Assembly (NCBI GenBank): GCA_963810935.1 | Contig: CAWEPK010000013.1 | Location: 1 to 10,952, forward strand | Direction of reading: 5' to 3' | DNA from: an uncultured delta proteobacterium | GTDB taxonomy: Bacteria > Desulfobacterota > Syntrophorhabdia > Syntrophorhabdales > WCHB1-27 | Length of the DNA stretch: 10,952 nt | Part shown: piece by piece, positions 548-10,952 of the stretch | Numbering within the stretch: position 1 is the first letter of the stretch | How the letters are laid out: each line of letters begins with the position of its first letter | The notes under the pieces: generated by a model | The model's database searches: none | What the model was told of the DNA's origin: nothing | The model's input: the letters and a program-made list of their open reading frames with translations, nothing else | Position numbers and translations under genes: made by a program

Positions 548-2407
548 TCAAATGTACCATGACGAGGGAAGATCGGCCATCCCCCCGATCCCCAGTTCTT
601 CCGTCCTGGCAGTCACCCTCTCGCCCATGGCCCTGTTCATCTTTATCTCCTCCGGCCATGGTCTCATCCTCCCCTCCCCTCTCTTGGCGGTCGCATCAAT
701 CACCATGCGGCCGCCTTTGTTGAAAATGTCACCTCCGGGGTCCACGTTGGCGGCTGCGCGCCAAAGGGCCTCCTCGTTCTCGACGGCCGCAACGGGGCCG
801 TCGAGAAGCACGCAGAAAACTCCCTCGGGCATGAAGGTCGACGAGAGAAGAAGGTCTACCAGGCTGTCCCTCTCCGCCGTGCCCTGCACCCCCACCAGAA
901 TCAGCGGATGGGCCGCCTCCCCGAAGAGGAGGCGGCAGTCAATGACGCGGGCGTCGCGGCTGCGAAGAAGGTTGGCCACCTCCGCATCGGGAGGCGGCGG
1001 CGCACCGGCAGGGAGGCAGCCCCTGACAGCCTCTCCTCTCAACCTTCCGGTGAGGTCCACGCCGACCTTCCCTCCCAGGACGGGCGACGGCGACGCGTGG
1101 TCGAGGACGTCGAGGATGCCGGTGGAAAAGGTGAGATCGCGCTGCGGGTCGATTGTATCGAGTACAGCCCGGGCGACCTCGCTGCCCATTGTCAGGTCAA
1201 GGGGCGCGTCGAGCACTAAGATCGCCTTGGATAAGCCCATCTGGCCGGAACCCCAGAGGCCGTGCATTACCCGAGCCGCCTGGCCGGGATAACGCTTCTC
1301 GATAGTCGCCAGCACTATGTTGTGAAAGACGCCCTCCCGGGGCATCCTGCAGTCGACAAGCTCGGGCAGGACCGCCTGGAGGAGGGGCAAAAAAAGCCTC
1401 TCCGTCGCCAGCCCGATGTAGGAGTCCTCCATGGGCGGGCGGCCAACCACCGTAGCCTGGTAGACGGCATCTTTCCTGTGGGTAAGGGCGGTCACATGAA
1501 AGACCGGATAAAGGTCGGCTGCCGAATAGAAGCCCGTGTGGTCGCCGAAGGGGCCCTCGAGGCGCTCTTCAGCCGGATCGACGTAGCCTTCGAGGACGAT
1601 CTCCGCCTCTGCAGGCACATCGAGATCAACCGTAAGGCACCGCGCCATCCGCACGGGCCTCCGTCTGACGAACCCCGCAAGGAGCATTTCATCGACGCCG
1701 TAAGGGAGAGGGGCTGTTGCCGCATAGGTGACGGCGGGATCCGCTCCTATGGCAACGGCAACCTCCATCCTCTTCCCTGCCGCACCATATTCATGGAAAT
1801 GGCGGGCCCCGTCCTTGTGGACATGCCAGTGCATCCCCAGCGTCTGGCCGTCAAACACCTGAAGGCGGTACATGCCGGCATTCCGCCGGCCTTCCGCATT
1901 CTTGGAAAAAACGATGGGAAGAGTTACAAACCTGCCCCCGTCGCCCGGCCAGCAGTGCAGGACCGGCAGCCTGTGGACATCGACATCCCCACCCCTGAAG
2001 ACCACATCCTGACAGGGGGGTGGGAAAAGACCGGGACCGCCGGGCAGGAATCGGGACCAGCCAAGCGCTTTAACGAGGAGGCGGACCTTGTCGGCAAGGG
2101 AGCCCGGCGGCCGGGGCGCAAGTATATCCCTGAGCCGGCCTGCCAACTCGCCGAGGTCGTCCACGCCGAGGGCCATGCAGATCCTCTTCATGCTGCCGAA
2201 GGCATTGGTGAGGACGGGCATCGAAGAGCCTTCCACCTTCTCGAAAAGAAGCGCCTTGCCGCCCCCAGGTGTTTTGGATGCCCTGTCCGTTATCTCCGAT
2301 ATCTCGAGGACAGGCGAGACAGGGGCCTTGATTCTCAGGAGCTCGCCTTCGGAATCGAGGGCCGCTATGAAGTCCCTAAGGCTGTTGTAGGTTTTTTCGT
2401 TCTTCAT
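548..2407 (-). CDS. ubiD: UbiD-family prFMN-dependent decarboxylase, menaquinone-biosynthesis (MqnL-like) type, 619 aa
   Basis: Motifs LRDFI..L...GEL, GGKALLFE, PVLTNAFGS, LPVLHCWPGDGGRFVTLP, RNAGMYRLQ, AEAEIVLEG, EGPFGDHTGFY, TVVGRPPMED and GGKVGVDLT. ATG is 12 nt after the upstream stop. Confidence 0.95.
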   Translation of the reverse strand: MKNEKTYNSLRDFIAALDSEGELLRIKAPVSPVLEISEITDRASKTPGGGKALLFEKVEGSSMPVLTNAFGSMKRICMALGVDDLGELAGRLRDILAPRPPGSLADKVRLLVKALGWSRFLPGGPGLFPPPCQDVVFRGGDVDVHRLPVLHCWPGDGGRFVTLPIVFSKNAEGRRNAGMYRLQVFDGQTLGMHWHVHKDGARHFHEYGAAGKRMEVAVAIGADPAVTYAATAPLPYGVDEMLLAGFVRRRPVRMARCLTVDLDVPAEAEIVLEGYVDPAEERLEGPFGDHTGFYSAADLYPVFHVTALTHRKDAVYQATVVGRPPMEDSYIGLATERLFLPLLQAVLPELVDCRMPREGVFHNIVLATIEKRYPGQAARVMHGLWGSGQMGLSKAILVLDAPLDLTMGSEVARAVLDTIDPQRDLTFSTGILDVLDHASPSPVLGGKVGVDLTGRLRGEAVRGCLPAGAPPPPDAEVANLLRSRDARVIDCRLLFGEAAHPLILVGVQGTAERDSLVDLLLSSTFMPEGVFCVLLDGPVAAVENEEALWRAAANVDPGGDIFNKGGRMVIDATAKRGEGRMRPWPEEIKMNRAMGERVTARTEELGIGGMADLPSSWYI

Positions 2408-2419
2408 GCACCCGTCCGC

Positions 2420-4120
2420 CTAAGCAAGCCGCCTCAGGATCTCTTCGGTCATGAGCGCGGCAAATACAAGGAGCGAAATTACACTGTTGATCCAGTAGAA
2501 GGCAATATGGATCCTGGAAAAGTTCTTCGGCGTCACGAGATGGTGCTCGACGACGAGAAGCATGCCGATTACCAGAACGAAGACTATGTAAACACGGGTC
2601 AGGCCGAAGAACCAGAAGAGCGAAAGGAGAGCCCCGAAGGCTACCAGGTGGAGCAGGCCCGACACGGTCAGGGCCGCCTCGGCGCCGAACCTTACCGGCA
2701 TCGAGCACAGGCCCTCCTGACTGTCAAATTCCACGTCCTGGCAGGCATAGAGGATGTCGAAGCCGGCGATATAGGCACACAGGGCAAGCGACAGGATGAC
2801 AATATTGACGGAAAGCGAGTTCGTGAGGGCCACCCAGACGCCGAGAGGGGCCAGACCGATGGCGATCCCCAGCGCCAGGTGGGACAGCCAGGTGAACCGC
2901 TTCGTATAGGAGTAGCCGAAGAGGACGGCCAGCACTGCGAAGGAATACCGGAAACACAGAGGGGATATGAAGAGGGCGGCAAGCACGAAGAGGACGGCGG
3001 AGGCAGCGACGAAGGCTGCCGTCTCCCCGGAGGTGACTTTCCCGGAAGGAAGCTCCCTGTCGGCCGTTCGCGGATTCCTGCCGTCGAAGGAAGCGTCAAC
3101 CAGGCGGTTGAATCCCATTGCAGCCGACCTGGCGCCGACCATGGCGACGACGATCCAGAAACCCTGCCTGAAGGTGACGGAAAATTGGCGCATTGCCAGG
3201 AGCAAGGCGGCAAGGGCGAAGGGCAACGCGAAGACCGTATGCTCGAACCTGATGAGACGACCGTAGACGCCGGCCGTGCGCCCCACCCGGACTATCGCCT
3301 GCACCACGGGGCTCTTCGTCTCCTCCACAAAGCTCGCATATTTCCATGGACACAGGCGCGGCTCGAGCGCCCCCAGGGCCTCGTAAAGCAATATTCCGAG
3401 AATACCCATGCCGACGATGCCGTTCCAGAGATGGCCGTAATCCATACGCGCCCACGCGTCCATGATGAGATAGCCCAGACCCGTTGTGGTGGCAAAAGAT
3501 TCGACGAAAAAGAGGACCGACACGGCCGTGCCGATCCCTATGCGGAGAGCGGTAAAGCTATGAGGCAGGGCGGCGGGAAAGGCTACCTCCATCAACACGA
3601 CGCGGTCATCCGCCCCGAGGGAGCGAAGAGAATCATAGTACTTCCCGTCCACGGCCCTTACGCCGTCCCTGGTCGCGACCAGCACCTGGAAGAAAAGGAT
3701 GCTTGTGATAAGGACAACCTTGGAAAGGTCGCCTATGCCGAATATAAGGAGGACGAGGGGAAGGAGGACGATTTTCGGGACCGGGTAGGTTATGAATACG
3801 AGAGGCGCAAAAATGCGGTCAATCCTTCTTCCGTAGCCCATGGCTACACCGACCGGGAAGGCAAGGAGCCAGCCCAGGGCTATACCAGCCGACACCCGGT
3901 ATGCGCTGATAAAGAAATGCCCCCAGAACTCGACGGTCCCGCAGGCCTTCGAAAAATTGAGGAGCACCGTTTCGGGGGGAAGAAGGAATGGCGACCTGAC
4001 GGCGCAAGCGGCCAGCTTCCAGAGGGCGGCGAGGATGCAAAGGCAGAGGGCGTAGTTGACCCCACGGGCCACCGCACCGGACGATCCTGTCTTCCATTCC
4101 CTATCAGCCGACGATGTCAT
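2420..4120 (-). CDS. Fusion protein: N-terminal SsuC/TauC-type ABC permease plus C-terminal UbiA-family (MqnP-like) polyprenyltransferase, 566 aa
   Basis: N-half has LLPPETV, SAYRV..G, YPVPKIVLLPL....FGIG, EAA-like YYDSLRSLGA....EVAFPAALP, and GLGYLIMDAW. C-half has IRFEHTVFALPFA, ARSAAMGFNRLVDASFDGRNPRT, YSYTKRFT and DILYACQDVEFD. The frame is continuous across the linker (about 3345-3260). ATG at 4120 overlaps the ATPase stop (ATGA, 4120-4117), so it is preferred over the track's GTG at 4135. Confidence 0.92.
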   Translation of the reverse strand: MTSSADREWKTGSSGAVARGVNYALCLCILAALWKLAACAVRSPFLLPPETVLLNFSKACGTVEFWGHFFISAYRVSAGIALGWLLAFPVGVAMGYGRRIDRIFAPLVFITYPVPKIVLLPLVLLIFGIGDLSKVVLITSILFFQVLVATRDGVRAVDGKYYDSLRSLGADDRVVLMEVAFPAALPHSFTALRIGIGTAVSVLFFVESFATTTGLGYLIMDAWARMDYGHLWNGIVGMGILGILLYEALGALEPRLCPWKYASFVEETKSPVVQAIVRVGRTAGVYGRLIRFEHTVFALPFALAALLLAMRQFSVTFRQGFWIVVAMVGARSAAMGFNRLVDASFDGRNPRTADRELPSGKVTSGETAAFVAASAVLFVLAALFISPLCFRYSFAVLAVLFGYSYTKRFTWLSHLALGIAIGLAPLGVWVALTNSLSVNIVILSLALCAYIAGFDILYACQDVEFDSQEGLCSMPVRFGAEAALTVSGLLHLVAFGALLSLFWFFGLTRVYIVFVLVIGMLLVVEHHLVTPKNFSRIHIAFYWINSVISLLVFAALMTEEILRRLA

Positions 4121-4848
4121 GGAGCTTCGAGGCACCTCCGCACCTCTTTACAGGTCTCGTGAAAAGACGCCTCTTCACGATAGCCGGCGCTGCCCACCCT
4201 CCCGTTATCTATCATCCTTTTGATAGATCCAGGCCTCCTGCCCAGGACCATGATTACCTGCCCCAGAAAAACGGCCTCCTCGATGCTGTGGGTCACGAGG
4301 ATCATTGTCAGCCCTCTTCTCTTCCATATGCCGAGCAGAAGGTTCTGAAGGTTCTCTCTGGTGAGGGCATCAAGGGAGGAGAAGGGCTCGTCCATCAAAA
4401 GAAGATCCGGTTCCGTGGCCAGCGCCCGGCCGATTGCAATGCGCTGTTTCTCCCCGCCCGAGAGACTCTCCGGAAAACGGTCCCGCTGCGCAAGGAGCCC
4501 GAGCTCGTCGAGGAGGTGTTCCGCCCTCCGTCCCTGCGTCGGTTTATCGAGCCGCGCGATCTTCATCCCGAGACAGACGTTCTCCCAGACCGTGCGCCAC
4601 GGCAGCAGACCGAAATCCTGCAAAATGAAACCGGTCTTCCCCGGCCTGCCCGCCTCTCTGTCGTTGATTGTCACGCCGCCCGAGCTCGGCGCCAGAAGGC
4701 CCGCCAGGAGATAGAGGAGCGTCGTCTTGCCGCACCCGGAGGGACCCACTACGGCCAGCGAGCCTGCATCGGGCACCGAAAAGCTAATGTCCCTAAGGAC
4801 GGGCGTGTCTTCCTGAAAACATTTATCGAGCCTGTCTACCTGGACCAA
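4117..4848 (-). CDS. ABC transporter ATP-binding protein, SsuB/TauB/NitT type
   Basis: Walker A GPSGCGKTT, Q-loop ILQD..LLPW, signature LSGGEKQR, Walker B LLLMDEPFSSLD, and VTHSIEEAVFL. TTG start preceded by GAAGAGGG. Confidence 0.95.
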   Translation of the reverse strand: MVQVDRLDKCFQEDTPVLRDISFSVPDAGSLAVVGPSGCGKTTLLYLLAGLLAPSSGGVTINDREAGRPGKTGFILQDFGLLPWRTVWENVCLGMKIARLDKPTQGRRAEHLLDELGLLAQRDRFPESLSGGEKQRIAIGRALATEPDLLLMDEPFSSLDALTRENLQNLLLGIWKRRGLTMILVTHSIEEAVFLGQVIMVLGRRPGSIKRMIDNGRVGSAGYREEASFHETCKEVRRCLEAP

Positions 4849-4866
4849 ACGACCCTCTTCCTGCCC

Positions 4867-5805
4867 TTACCAGGGCGCAACAATAGTTTCGTAGGCAGCG
4901 GTCGTTGAGATCAATCCCTTTTCCTTCAGCCATTTCGAAATCGAGAGGACATCCTGCCGCCTCGGCTTCTCGGGACGTGGAAACAGGGGCACCTTGAACC
5001 GCCCCCTCAGGGAAGCGGGAAACTGTGTCCGCTCCACCAACAAATCTATAAAGGCCTGGGGGTTCTCATCTATCGCCCGGACAGCCTTGTCGTACGCCGC
5101 GACAAAGCGCGCCGCAAGGTCCGGGTAGCGGGTTAGAAGGTCGCTTTTCAGCGCCACTACCGTGAGAGTGGTATCAAGTCCCCTGTCATCGGCGAGCACG
5201 ATGGCCCCTTCGGACTCGGCTTTGCTCGCTAGAGGCTCGGGCAGAAGGGCAGACTTCACCTGCCCCGCCATGAGCATCTGGTACCGTATGGGGATGGCCC
5301 TCACCTCAATCTTACCTACCCTGTTAGCACGGACGGCAGACCTGGAGAGTATCCCGTCGAGCACGTATTCGACGACGGAGGCCTTCGATACGGCCACGGA
5401 CTCACCCGCAAGCTGTCCCACGTCCCTGATCCCGGACCGGGGCGAGGCGAGCAGGGCAAACATCCTTTGCCTGGAATCCGTCCTCATGACGGAAGTCAGG
5501 ACGGCGAGACGCTGGCCGGAGTTTATCAGGAGGAGCGTATTGAGGAGGTCCCCGAAATAGGCATCGACTTTTCCGCTTTGTAGTGCCACGTCCCGTTCGA
5601 GGGCGCTCGAAAAGTAAAGGAACCTGGCGTCGATCCCCTGCTCCTCGAAAAAACCCTTCTTCCCTGCAACGACGAGGGGAAGGGTATCGATCACGGGCAA
5701 CAGTCCCAAGGATACGGAGACCCGTTCTGCGGCAACGGCCGGAGAGACGCCTCCCGGACAGAGGAAAGCAACGAGGACGACCGATAGCAAGGCCCTTCTA
5801 ATCAT
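4867..5805 (-). CDS. ABC transporter substrate-binding protein, SsuA/TauA/NMT1-THI5-like, 312 aa
   Basis: Signal peptide MIRRALLSVVLVAFLCPGGVSPAVAA. Motifs LPLVVA.KKGFFEEQGID, ALQSGKVDA, SGIRDV.QLAG, and GQVKSALLPEP. The first 78 aa of the 390-aa track ORF lie in the IS110 end and promoter region and are probably not translated. Alternative ATG at 5814. Confidence 0.9.
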   Translation of the reverse strand: MIRRALLSVVLVAFLCPGGVSPAVAAERVSVSLGLLPVIDTLPLVVAGKKGFFEEQGIDARFLYFSSALERDVALQSGKVDAYFGDLLNTLLLINSGQRLAVLTSVMRTDSRQRMFALLASPRSGIRDVGQLAGESVAVSKASVVEYVLDGILSRSAVRANRVGKIEVRAIPIRYQMLMAGQVKSALLPEPLASKAESEGAIVLADDRGLDTTLTVVALKSDLLTRYPDLAARFVAAYDKAVRAIDENPQAFIDLLVERTQFPASLRGRFKVPLFPRPEKPRRQDVLSISKWLKEKGLISTTAAYETIVAPW

Positions 5806-5812
5806 GGGGGAC

Positions 5813-5818
5813 ATTATA
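5813..5818 (-). promoter_or_regulatory. Candidate sigma70 -10 box (TATAAT) for the ABC-ubiA-ubiD operon
   Basis: Perfect TATAAT at 5818-5813, 7 nt before the ATG at 5805. No Shine-Dalgarno. The -35 match is weak (TTCGCT at 17 nt spacing). Confidence 0.45.
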
Positions 5819-5849: not shown

Positions 5850-6814
5850 GCGGGGTCAGTAGTGGGTCAGTTTGAAAATGATAATGTTGCTTAACCGCTC
5901 TTGCACGTCTTTTTAACTTGACATTCAAGGGCCTGTTGCCCAACTCATAATGCCAGTCCTTTGTCATGGAGACAAATGTCCGTGTTTCAGCGGCGGTGAT
6001 GCAGTTAGCAACACTTGTTTTCTCTTTCCTGCATTTCACGGATGCCGGTTGAATTCTTCACGATTACTGGCTGTCCTGATGTTGACGACTTCAGTCAACT
6101 GGCTTCGCTTCCCTCCCTCCTCAAAGCATGTTTGGTGAACCAGCATGGCGAACATCACCCGGATGAGCTTATGGGCAGTTGCCATAATCGCCTTTTTGTA
6201 GCACAGCCCGTCTCTCTTTCTTTTGCAGAAATAGGCCCTGAAGAGGTCATTGGAGAAGACTACGGTCTTGGTCGTCAGCCAGATCACCCTTCTCAGGCGC
6301 CGGTTTCCTCTCTTGTTTATTTTGCTTGATCCTTCGTACTTGCCCGATTGGTATGTGGAAGAAGGATCGAGGCCGGCAGCGGCAATGAGCTTCTTGTCGT
6401 TCTTGCAGAGGCTAACATCTCCGCCCATCTCTAATTGCGGTCGCTTCCCCTATGCCCTTGATCGAGATTGGTAGCTAGATGTCTTTCTTCATCTTCTCAT
6501 TGCAGAAATCCGTAAGGGCCTTCGTCGTCTCCTTGATCTGCTCCTGGATATAGAGAAGCAGAGAGGCATCCTGTTTCAAAATCAGTTCCCTTGCCGGGGA
6601 TGAGATAACTACAGAAGAAGATGCAGTAGCCATCAGGGTATCCACCCACGCCCTGGACTTTCTGCCCAATGACCGGGGAACAACGATGGCTGCCACAGTA
6701 TCGACATCTTCCTTTCGAAGTGCATCAGCAGAGGGGAACCGGGTGAGCAGTTGCAGGATAGACTTGGTGAAGACCCCTGTAAGACTCCAGCTCAGGGAAG
6801 GTGACGGATAGCAC
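5850..6814 (-). mobile_element. Degenerate IS110-family element: transposase remnant plus downstream non-coding end; boundaries approximate
   Basis: Transposase fragments (next feature), followed by about 200 nt of lower-GC non-coding sequence with several inverted repeats. GC-rich host-like sequence resumes near 5850. Confidence 0.7.
6036..6814 (-). pseudogene. IS110/IS116/IS902-family transposase pseudogene lacking the N-terminal DEDD domain
   Basis: Reads VLSVTFPELES (6814-6782), frameshift, LTGVFTKSILQLLTRFPSA...KKDI, TAG (6477-6475), LPISIKGIGEATA, frameshift near 6432, then MGGDVS...KKLIAAAGLDPSSTYQSGKYEGSSKINKRGNRRLRR...KKAIMATAHKLIRVMFAML (Transposase_20-type motifs). Confidence 0.92.
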
Positions 6815-7016
6815 CCCTCCCCTTGCTCCACCCATTGTACTGCCTTTTTTAGCCTTCTTTCGAATGCCCCTTACCTCACAACGCGCAAGACACCCTAAGG
6901 TAGATCCACTATCCCCTGCATAAGGCAAAGGCCATTTTAAGTAATTCGCCGCTCTTGACGATAAAAAGTATAGCAGGTTTACGATCTTGACCCTATGACC
7001 GAATGGGGAGGTACGA

Positions 7017-7876: not shown

Positions 7877-8401
7877 TCAATGATGTGCGGTAGTCGTCGT
7901 TGACGATCCCTTGCCGCCGCTGGCGGCGATAATGGCTGCGGCTGCGGCAGCGGCAATCCCTGCGCCTGCTGCTATCGTCCCTGCGCCTATACCGGCGGCC
8001 ACGTGTCCGCCGGCCACCAAACCGGCCGTGTGGGCCGCCTCGGAGGCGGACTTGGCAGCGGCGGCAGCTTTGGCGGCGGCCGCCTTATCGGCTTCAGTTC
8101 CGGTAAGGGCGGCCTTTTGGGCGGCGAAGTCGGCCGCTTTATTAGCCTCTGAGGCGGCAATCCTGGCCTGTTCGGCGGCTATTTTTTTCTCAGCGGCGGC
8201 GGCAACCGCATCGCCTTTCGCCTCTGCTGCGGCCGCGGCTTTTTCTGCGACTGCGGCCTTCTCCTCTGCTGCGGCTGCGGCTTTTTCCGCGGTAGCGGCT
8301 TGCCGGCCTAATTCCTCAGCCGTCTGTGCAAACACCTGGATGGGAGCCATAAGCCCGATACATAAAGCGAGGAAGCAACAAAGCAAAAATCTGCCACTCA
8401 T
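7877..8401 (-). CDS. Ala-rich exported protein with a C-terminal hydrophobic helix and Gly/Ser/Thr tail (YjbE/GfcA-like architecture)
   Basis: RBS GGTGAGGT. Signal peptide ending VFA|QT. AEKAAAAAEEKAA helical repeats. C-terminus AGIAAAAAAAIIAASGGKGSSTTTTAHH. Confidence 0.8.
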   Translation of the reverse strand: MSGRFLLCCFLALCIGLMAPIQVFAQTAEELGRQAATAEKAAAAAEEKAAVAEKAAAAAEAKGDAVAAAAEKKIAAEQARIAASEANKAADFAAQKAALTGTEADKAAAAKAAAAAKSASEAAHTAGLVAGGHVAAGIGAGTIAAGAGIAAAAAAAIIAASGGKGSSTTTTAHH

Positions 8402-9850: not shown

Positions 9851-10213
9851 TTGGACAACCTCGTATCGGTCAGCCCCGATGGTACTGTCTACTCTATGCC
9901 GGATGAAGCCGACCACCGTGCCGAGCCCGCCCGTATGGAAGTCCTCGTCAGTGAGGCAAGGGCCAAAGGCCAGGAGATCGTAGTAGTCATGGGTGTCGGC
10001 TTCGTGGGTGCGGTCATGGCCGCAATTATAGCAGACACCACGGATTCCGAAGGCTCCCCCGCCAAGCTTGCAATCGGCATGCAAAGGCCGAGCGCAAGGA
10101 GCTACTGGAGGATACCCCTGCTCAACCAGGGGGTCTCGCCCGTCAAAGCGGAAGACCCCGAAGTCGACCCGATGATAAGGCGCTGCGTACTGGGCAAGGA
10201 GACGCTCGTGGCG
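9851..10213 (+). pseudogene. UDP-glucose/GDP-mannose dehydrogenase family; N-terminal NAD-binding fragment of 121 codons, 3'-truncated
   Basis: RBS GGAGG and TTG start. Rossmann motif IVVVMGVGFVGAVMAAIIAD, QRPSARSYWRIPLLNQGVSPVKAEDPEV. Similarity ends at KETLVA, where intron sequence begins. Confidence 0.85.
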
Positions 10214-10516
10214 CCTGCGGTGCTTTACAGCGAAGCAATGGATCAAGAACTGCCATACCCGGTGCAAGAACCTAGTGACCATGGGCGTCCACGAAAAGGA
10301 CATCCAACTCTTTGCCGCATTACCAAAGGGACCATGGGCGATGTCCATATGAAATCGATGAGAGTGGCGACACCGAACTGCTTCTTGAAGGAGCACGTAC
10401 TCTTTAGCCTCCTTGCCCAACATCGGCTCATTGGCAAGCTTCATGAACCGTCGTTTACGGACCTGTATGTGCGGTGATGTGAGAGGCGAAGGTCGCGAGG
10501 CCTTCCCTATCCCGAT
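10212..10516 (+). mobile_element. 3' remnant of a group II intron (class IIC-like): maturase C-terminus plus ribozyme domains V and VI
   Basis: 10212-10349 reads RLRCFTAKQWIKNCHTRCKNLVTMGV...PKGPWAMS; after a frameshift it reads MRVATPNCFLKEHVLFSLL (IIC maturase C-terminal pattern). DV-like GAACCGTCGTTTACGGACCTGTATGTGCGGTGATGTGAGAGG starts at 10445. DVI hairpin GAAGGTC-GCGA-GGCCTTC at 10488-10505. 3' end CCTATCCCGAT at 10516. Confidence 0.9.
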
Positions 10517-10665
10517 TCAACAGCGCGGCAGAATTGGAAGACAAAATCAAATTTTACGTGCAACAAGAGGACGAGAAGGGAGAGATCGTTTCAGAAGACT
10601 ATCCTGGAGGAGTATAACGCATAAAATATCGTGGTTATAATGATGGATATAATAAAACGCGGGTG
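10517..10665 (+). pseudogene. C-terminal remnant of a GT-B glycosyltransferase (CgeB/Glyco_trans_1_2-like)
   Basis: Reads (F)NSAAELEDKIKFYVQQEDEKGEIVS, frameshift near 10590, then QKTILEEYNA*NIVVIMMDIIKRG with TAA at 10622-10624. Resembles the GT C-terminal pattern S.EEL.EKI.YY....EER..IA..G...V...H. Confidence 0.55.
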
Positions 10666-10952
10666 GCTCGAACCGTTTTCCGTTGATAGAAATCTACCGA
10701 TAACGGACTATCCTCACAAATGGCCTCTTGCTGATAAAGCGCCAATAAATGGTCCGACAGACTCCATAGTCGATTTCTTAGCCCATATTTTCTTGCAGGG
10801 AAGGGCGCACAATTAAAGTCCTCACCGTATTCGGAACACGTCCTGAAGCAATTAAGATGGCTCCCGTAATAGCCGAAGCCATGAGGTATCATGACTTTCT
10901 TCAGACTGTGGTGTGCGTGACCGCCCAGCATCGAGAGATGCTTGACCAAGTA

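Follow-up and report, generated by a model that had tools for sequence, protein, structure and literature searches.

The stretch of DNA analyzed here (the window, 10,952 nt) is the entire contig C13 of an uncultured delta proteobacterium whose source genome (G000) is a 4.06-Mb metagenome assembly, 93.5% complete and with 7.1% contamination. Its minus strand carries an operon in which the genes for an ATP-binding cassette (ABC) importer are joined to those for two enzymes of late menaquinone synthesis. The features of this operon are as follows.

4867..5805, minus strand: substrate-binding protein with the SsuA/TauA/THI5 (NMT1) fold, 312 amino acids (PF09084 and PF13379), the proposed dihydroxynaphthoate receptor
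4117..4848, minus strand: ABC ATPase of the TauB/SsuB/NrtD type, 243 amino acids, TTG start (PF00005)
4120-2420, minus strand: open reading frame (ORF) of the permease-UbiA fusion, 566 amino acids without internal stops, with BPD_transp_1 (residues 80-254) and UbiA (residues 298-546) in one chain according to Pfam
3338..4120, minus strand: ABC permease domain of the fusion, residues 1-261 (PF00528 at residues 80-254)
2420..3337, minus strand: short linker and MqnP-type UbiA-family prenyltransferase domain of the fusion (PF01040; above the TIGR01475 cut-off)
548..2407, minus strand: MqnL-type UbiD decarboxylase, long form, 619 amino acids (above the TIGR03701 cut-off)
5813..5818, minus strand: perfect TATAAT hexamer, 7 nt ahead of the first start codon, read in the sequence

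As the preliminary description of this DNA had stated, the genes are tightly packed (the first two lie 18 nt apart, the next two overlap by 4 nt at ATGA, and 12 nt separate the last two), and the UbiA (IRFEHTVFALPF) and UbiD (HCWPGDGG) sequences that it singled out are both present. Its statement that the window is free of head-group synthesis genes also held, as Pfam scanning of 10 window ORFs returned no match to early mqn, men, or ubiC families and genome-wide searches covering C13 gave no match there. The type II binding protein, BPD_transp_1 permease, and ABC ATPase encoded in one operon place the transporter in the NitT/TauT structural class. The TATAAT hexamer, also kept in the same-genus locus L057, is a possible promoter of a leaderless transcript; it is not among the sites listed by a consensus promoter scan, and promoter and terminator scanning of the sequence produced matches at chance level only.

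Homology searches with the fusion protein yielded 515 matches at E ≤ 1e-60. Among the best 120, with identities of 47 to 100%, 119 carry both Pfam domains and the remaining one is a partial protein, which rules out an assembly or read-through artifact. Database labels among these 120 include Syntrophorhabdales, Desulfobacterales, Spirochaetota, and Methanomassiliicoccales; the two fusions P0087 and P0120, with 50 to 51% identity, bear the last of these labels. The motif-to-motif distance over the linker is 20 to 32 residues in the fusions for which both motifs were found, 113 of the 119. An AlphaFold2 (AF2) model of the fusion has two helical domains connected by a lower-confidence linker (predicted template modeling score [pTM], 0.64).

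Profile scores, sequence identity, and a motif together assign both enzymes to the late futalosine branch of menaquinone synthesis. The prenyltransferase reaches 276 bits on TIGR01475 (cut-off, 180.8) and stays at 219 to 255 bits on three lineage-specific MqnP models (NF041584-6; cut-offs, 375 to 430), whereas the decarboxylase scores 598.3 bits on the MqnL model TIGR03701 (cut-off, 495.9) and falls below the E. coli-type UbiD model (376 versus 788 bits). The prenyltransferase is 53 to 57% identical, and the UbiD protein 52 to 56% identical (to the long MqnL), to the enzymes of the complete-futalosine genomes G044, G256, G285, G311, and G378, which hold MqnA/D and MqnC/E. The first aspartate-rich motif reads NRxxD in all 119 fusions and in 56 of 56 MqnP-type proteins, as opposed to NDxxD in 10 of 10 UbiA-type proteins scored; we take a residue in this motif to be an MqnP marker described in the literature. 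On the basis of these scores, identities, and motif, the operon enzymes are late futalosine pathway enzymes, the subtypes that the preliminary description took them to resemble. The MqnP/MqnL/MqnM naming comes from PMC4746308, which, in the parts covered, calls the assignment a prediction, and the order of the last futalosine steps is described as unconfirmed in the portion of bioRxiv 10.1101/2021.10.26.465979 consulted. The EGPFGDHTG motif occurs in all 17 long MqnL forms listed, and ubiX is located elsewhere in G000; MqnL would be a prenylated flavin mononucleotide (prFMN)-dependent decarboxylase of prenylated dihydroxynaphthoate. The long MqnL has a C-terminal extension of 157 amino acids (window 551-1021, minus strand) with no Pfam match, which by eye looks like a duplicate of the C-terminal part of UbiD; it is common to fused-layout loci and to some complete-futalosine genomes. 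The differences from the known late pathway are that G000 lacks MqnA-E, that its MqnP is fused to an ABC permease, and that its MqnL has this extension, found also in some complete-pathway genomes.

Regarding the first of these differences, PF02621 (MqnA/D), MqnE, and the chorismate lyase UbiC had no match in G000, and nothing above cut-off was found for MqnC, MenD, or MenB. A tblastn search of G000 with nine early futalosine proteins of relatives (MqnA/D, C, E, and B) returned nothing at E ≤ 1e-3, control queries hit UbiD (53%) and UbiX (63%), and MenD and MenB queries recovered paralogues only (25% and 32 to 33% identity, respectively). PF02621 likewise had no match in any of the 21 other genomes of the same family, which makes assembly incompleteness an unlikely cause of the missing genes. 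Ring synthesis by a known route is not possible for G000. The genome retains ubiX, menG, two polyprenyl synthases, and three NarI-like heme b membrane cytochrome subunits; absence of early mqn and men genes with menG and ubiX kept is the pattern that the preliminary description had taken as a sign of salvage. The menG gene (L087:8335-9438; C12 near 189,490) is split by a frameshift in the assembly, but the extra base is absent from the contigs of all four runs compared, which belong to one study; the frameshift is probably an assembly error, and the idea of a menG pseudogene was rejected. Other split genes in the G000 assembly may likewise be errors. G000 has six UbiD-family genes. Its C8/C12 contigs also carry a separate MenA-like prenyltransferase below cut-offs (L090:8618-9520) and, at a distance of some 7 kb from a divergent UbiA, a further UbiD (L088:6902-16019).

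The AF2 model of the binding protein (predicted local distance difference test [pLDDT], 97) adopts the type II periplasmic binding-protein fold, and a signal-peptide-like N terminus was recognized by eye in its sequence. The closest named record is 88% identical and labeled Syntrophorhabdales, the order to which the host probably belongs. Its best fold matches are SsuA, CmpA, NrtA, and TauA (Z, 26 to 29; 13 to 20% identity), with SsuA at Z 28.6 and a root mean square deviation of 2.5 over 278 residues (16% identity), followed by PqqT (PDB 9B1U; Z, 24.7; 20% identity) and MqnD/MqnA (Z, 17 to 22). This fold is a common one, and the protein has no PF02621 match that would make it a member of the MqnA/MqnD family. 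Scores on TIGR01728 (SsuA; 85 bits, cut-off 163.5) and TIGR01729 (TauA; 20.7 versus 304 bits) are below membership, as is the best NCBIfam match of the ATPase, TauB (204.8 bits, cut-off 357). Neither an upstream thiamine pyrophosphate/flavin mononucleotide riboswitch nor linked thi/rib genes, the hallmarks of ThiY/RibY, were found; the window had no Rfam riboswitch match and 11 related loci gave two tRNAs only. Similarly, ssuD/ssuE and tauD are absent from the window and from the nearest neighbors scanned (105 and 96 proteins), and the latter include no sulfonate-catabolism, nitrate-reductase, or thiamine-synthesis families. By structure the system is therefore a NitT/TauT-type importer that stands apart from the sulfonate, taurine, and thiamine groups. 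It shares with SsuABC, TauABC, NrtABCD/CmpABCD, and ThiXYZ the three-part layout, the type II fold, the BPD_transp_1 permease, and the TauB-like ATPase; unlike them, it shows 13 to 21% identity, below all curated cut-offs, has a permease fused to a prenyltransferase, and has late menaquinone genes as neighbors in place of genes for sulfur, nitrogen, or thiamine metabolism. Searches of the PDB by sequence and fold found no close relative with a known ligand, and an ESM Atlas search returned generic NMT1 clusters only. Across 67 members of the binding-protein family, R174, D72, P191, and W292 are invariant; at position 71, R predominates among mqnP-linked proteins (37 of 40) and K among menA/menG-linked ones (16 of 19). 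The invariant arginine would suit a carboxylate ligand if it lies in the pocket.

Genomic linkage to late menaquinone genes was analyzed at two taxonomic depths. Within the order (96 genomes, 31 with an MqnL-type gene and 8 with MqnA/D), a part of the transporter adjoins the mqnL-type gene in 24 of the 30 loci other than that of G000. Seven of these are fused, one being cut by a contig end and one broken by frameshifts, and 17 are unfused, with mqnL-mqnP followed by the binding protein and usually also by the ATPase and permease genes. At L064 (genome G078), a fused-layout operon contains several frameshifts in the binding protein and permease, by decay or assembly error. At one further locus the transporter lies at a distance of 5 kb, next to a menA fragment; the remaining 5 of the 30 have no transporter nearby. 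MqnA/D occurs in 3 of the 24 transporter-linked genomes versus 4 of these 5.

In the phylum sample (401 genomes; permease called at E ≤ 1e-40, one locus per positive genome examined), 57 genomes possess the permease family. Late menaquinone genes are adjacent in 44 of them, from 14 of 19 families: 3 loci are fused, 22 adjoin mqnP (for G266, the count is based on the binding protein, which is on another contig), and 21 adjoin menG, a menA-like gene, or both; two genomes fall into two of these classes. The menG and menA-like neighbors were identified with NCBIfam at most loci, and with profiles built from those neighbors for G054 and for the menG of G257; full-length menG neighbors pass TIGR01934. 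The preliminary description had proposed checking whether homologues of the binding protein colocalize with ubiA/ubiD across genomes, and the outcome was as predicted, with transporter homologues recurring next to mqnP and mqnL. Early genes follow the reverse trend. MqnA/D is present in 7 of 57 permease-positive versus 209 of 344 other genomes, a contrast also seen within families f23, f45, and f69; menB exceeds its cut-off in 1 of 57 (15 of 401 overall), and menD was found in the same single genome among 78 searched. Neither early route is held by 48 of the 57, including G126 with a lone sub-cut-off MqnC-like match. Among genomes that pass TIGR03701 without MqnA/D the permease occurs in 25 of 41, against 7 of 216 genomes with MqnA/D. 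The 28 MqnL-like matches in genomes lacking both transporter and MqnA/D include 20 under 525 bits, which were not counted as evidence on salvage; 10 of these 20 have a UbiA-like neighbor, and NDxxD was read in all 10 UbiA-like proteins that were scored. Control loci behaved differently: a scan of a genome collection with the binding protein gave 1 close and 10 distant loci, and the 10 distant SsuA-like loci, used as controls only, have no quinone genes nearby, nor does the second SsuA-like transporter of G000.

Operons of both the mqnP-linked and the menA-linked kind are often immediately preceded by a gene for a TetR-family regulator (L127, L129, L135, L138, L140, L144-L148, L150, and L152), which could act as a sensor of the imported ring. 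In G469, mqnE, mqnC, an MTAP-like gene, an amidohydrolase gene, mqnL, mqnP, and the transporter genes form one cluster (L293:7850-12499, L137). PF02621 searching of this genome, which is 92% complete, gave no MqnA/D, and its five sampled congeners are without mqnC/E; its pathway is possibly in decay.

Metagenomes were scanned with the permease alignment, that of the binding protein being too diverse for a pattern scan. From at least 544 loci, the 80 most similar to the window permease were kept, a selection biased to the fused form; same-strand late genes accompany 33 of these 80. Among the 26 well-covered loci (at least 4 kb upstream and at least 1.8 kb downstream), 14 have late genes and 2 more are followed by mqnC/E and mqnA/D, so that 16 lie beside menaquinone genes.

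Association with two different prenyltransferases was further resolved by a quick maximum-likelihood tree of 70 binding proteins, on which the mqnP-linked label changes 6 times and the menA/menG-linked label 4 times. Three mqnP-linked proteins nest within a menA/menG-linked clade (support, 95 to 100) and two menA-linked proteins group with mqnP-linked ones (support, 99), indicating that the partner of the binding protein changed more than once. MqnP and MenA share the polyprenyl donor, and their acceptors are isomeric dihydroxy-2-naphthoates. Of the substrates of these enzymes, the acceptor alone is soluble, and it alone accounts for the link between the transporter and missing head-group genes.

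From gene context and distribution, we infer that the operon most probably encodes a high-affinity importer of a dihydroxy-2-naphthoate ring, here 1,4-dihydroxy-6-naphthoate, that feeds prenylation and decarboxylation. This compound (5,8-dihydroxy-2-naphthoate) is the end product of the early futalosine pathway and the likely ligand of the G000 operon. The periplasmic binding protein would capture soluble dihydroxy-2-naphthoate released by other anaerobes, and the permease and ATPase would carry it inward. The fused MqnP domain would then prenylate the ring at the membrane, so trapping it there, perhaps with a direct hand-off from permease to prenyltransferase. Decarboxylation of the prenylated ring by MqnL, with prFMN from UbiX, would presumably follow, and MenG would methylate the product to menaquinone. 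Family members adjacent to menA/menG would import the isomer 1,4-dihydroxy-2-naphthoate (DHNA). The preliminary description had envisaged a quinone precursor such as a dihydroxynaphthoate or a hydroxybenzoate. The naphthoate is favored because the same family adjoins menA/menG in genomes without menD/menB, and the hydroxybenzoate is disfavored by the NRxxD motif in place of NDxxD. The salvage interpretation is therefore supported and also widened, as the family lies beside menA/menG too. We are inclined, with somewhat less assurance, to view these proteins as a widespread family of ABC importers specialized for menaquinone head groups, which serves both late pathways, switches partners and, in one lineage (with homologues also labeled Spirochaetota and Methanomassiliicoccales), has acquired a fusion that couples import to membrane trapping.

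Several observations weigh against the interpretation as a naphthoate importer. Ligand binding and transport are predictions from genes, and the generic fold matches of the binding protein (SsuA, CmpA, NrtA, and TauA) set its class and are silent on its ligand. G000 is a metagenome assembly, 93.5% complete and with 7% contamination; the tree is a quick version, not a careful one; and, related genomes not being independent, a 2x2 odds ratio overstates the case. Most menA-like neighbors score only near the TIGR00751 cut-off, two being well above it. There is no adjacent quinone gene in 13 of the 57 permease-positive genomes (the locus is truncated by the contig end in 5, the permease is a distant family member in 1, the whole futalosine pathway is present in 5, and 2 lack an explanation), and 10 of the 26 well-covered metagenome loci have unrelated neighbors and no quinone gene. 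Early-pathway genes are held by 9 of the 57 genomes (7 with MqnA/D, G469 with mqnC/E, and G407 with men), and hence the pump is not confined to auxotrophs; in prototrophs it might spare synthesis or recover intermediate that leaks out. Conversely, this permease is missing at E ≤ 1e-40 from 8 genomes that combine a high-scoring MqnL with a lack of MqnA/D; in 2 of these 8, a more distant SsuA-type ABC system occupies the same position. In G392 (L188:8718-11409) and G348 (L189:8807-11498), mqnL-mqnP precedes the genes of a much more distant SsuA-type importer (binding protein, ATPase, and permease), which scores 103 to 107 bits on the family profile and may be an independent recruitment for the same job.

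It is possible, if rather unlikely, that the pump serves menaquinone metabolism with another cargo, such as a decarboxylated naphthoquinone (menadione- or ACNQ-like), an earlier futalosine intermediate, or a short prenyl phosphate (e.g., the UbiX substrate). The pump lies directly ahead of mqnC/E and mqnA/D in two metagenome loci and is clustered with mqnE and mqnC in G469, ubiX follows the transporter genes in several loci, and SsuA-type proteins, as judged from structure titles, bind small oxyanions. However, earlier intermediates would need MqnB/C/D, which were not found in G000, and the retained MqnL decarboxylase points to a carboxylated substrate. As to prenyl compounds, a donor would not track head-group gene loss, G000 has its own polyprenyl synthases, and the menA/menG layouts mostly have no adjacent ubiX.

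We regard it as very improbable that these organisms are prototrophs whose early genes escaped assembly or whose ring arises by an undescribed route, in which the protein with the binding-protein fold might be an MqnA/MqnD-like enzyme, the pump then serving just to recover intermediate that leaks out. MqnA and MqnD do share the fold (Z, 17 to 22), the 9 of 57 genomes with early genes and the incompleteness of G000 (93.5% complete) would fit, and PMC13386864, in the parts covered, notes lineages that make menaquinone without a known pathway. Yet the absence is common to the 21 family relatives and to 48 of the 57 genomes, at least 90% complete; the binding protein, free of PF02621, has a signal-peptide-like N terminus and nearly always accompanies an ATPase and a permease; and recapture in prototrophs would still be naphthoate import.

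Import of 4-hydroxybenzoate or a similar monocyclic acid, from which UbiA/UbiD would make a benzoquinone or another prenylated phenol, appears equally remote. The six UbiD-family genes without a chorismate lyase match in G000, and the label of 4-hydroxybenzoate polyprenyltransferase given to the fusion by several databases, speak for it; it is disfavored by the NRxxD motif that the prenyltransferase has in common with all 56 MqnP-type proteins (NDxxD in 10 of 10 of the UbiA type), by the 53 to 57% identity of the prenyltransferase to complete-futalosine enzymes, by a decarboxylase whose score suffices for the MqnL model but not for that of E. coli-type UbiD (376 versus 788 bits), and by the menA/menG linkage of the same transporter family. 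Finally, an ordinary sulfonate, nitrate, or thiamine-precursor importer merely adjacent to quinone genes, as the best family and fold matches (SsuA, TauA, CmpA, and ThiY) and the unrelated neighbors at 10 of 26 well-covered metagenome loci might suggest, is likewise very improbable given scores under the SsuA, TauA, and TauB cut-offs, linkage that recurs in three gene orders, two prenyltransferase types, and a conserved fusion, and the lack of sulfonate, nitrate-reductase, or thiamine families among scanned neighbors and of riboswitches in the window or the 11 related loci.

Import of a soluble ring by the naphthoate transporter proposed here is reminiscent of DHNA salvage by quinone auxotrophs with menA and menG only, which also keep the late steps alone; the differences are that a specific transporter family is named here and that salvage is extended to the futalosine-type head group. 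In the parts of these sources covered, PMC4746308 predicted unannotated transporters for soluble quinone precursors, PMC5738691 stated that no quinone-precursor transporter had been described at that time and reported a Bilophila isolate induced by DHNA only, and PMC10746273 expected uptake routes not yet identified; the portions of PMC13386864 covered do not discuss such importers. Our literature search, of partial coverage and not extending to supplements (e.g., of PMC13386864 and PMC4746308), found no description of this family or of any naphthoate importer. Another known system for comparison is PqqT, a periplasmic protein that binds pyrroloquinoline quinone (PQQ), a carboxylated quinone cofactor, and has a proposed role in import (PMC11331073, covered in part). 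Its likeness to the binding protein of the operon is one of fold; PQQ is a finished soluble cofactor, whereas the cargo here would be a precursor prenylated into a membrane quinone. By this analogy, the type II class already includes a receptor able to bind a carboxylated quinone.

If the interpretation as a naphthoate importer is correct, the futalosine-pathway head group would be exchanged between cells; on the wider view of the family, many syntrophs would depend on 1,4-dihydroxy-6-naphthoate cross-fed by neighbors. Requiring an imported ring would be a hidden dependency, and would offer a supplement to try in the cultivation of uncultured syntrophs. In syntrophic fatty-acid oxidation the reverse redox loop is driven by menaquinone-type carriers, according to the part of bioRxiv 10.64898/2026.08.18.745454 consulted. 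Within the sections covered, PMC13386864 describes genomes with neither menaquinone pathway and frequent pathway switching in Desulfobacterota, and salvage could account for part of this pattern. The transporter family also provides a concrete soluble protein for assay and a marker gene for quinone auxotrophy.

The rest of the window holds genes of other kinds. An IS110-family transposase remnant lies in pieces just upstream of the operon (6036-6831, minus strand; PF02371 on 6039-6428). It is followed by genes for a PilZ/YcgR-type protein (PF12945; 7017-7601, plus strand), whose ORF may be cut short at the 3' end, and for an alanine-rich low-complexity protein with a signal-like N terminus and no Pfam match (7877-8401, minus strand). 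Broken ORFs span 9851-10952, of which the piece 9851-10474 has no Pfam match; by their motifs, they resemble a UDP-sugar dehydrogenase and a UDP-GlcNAc 2-epimerase.

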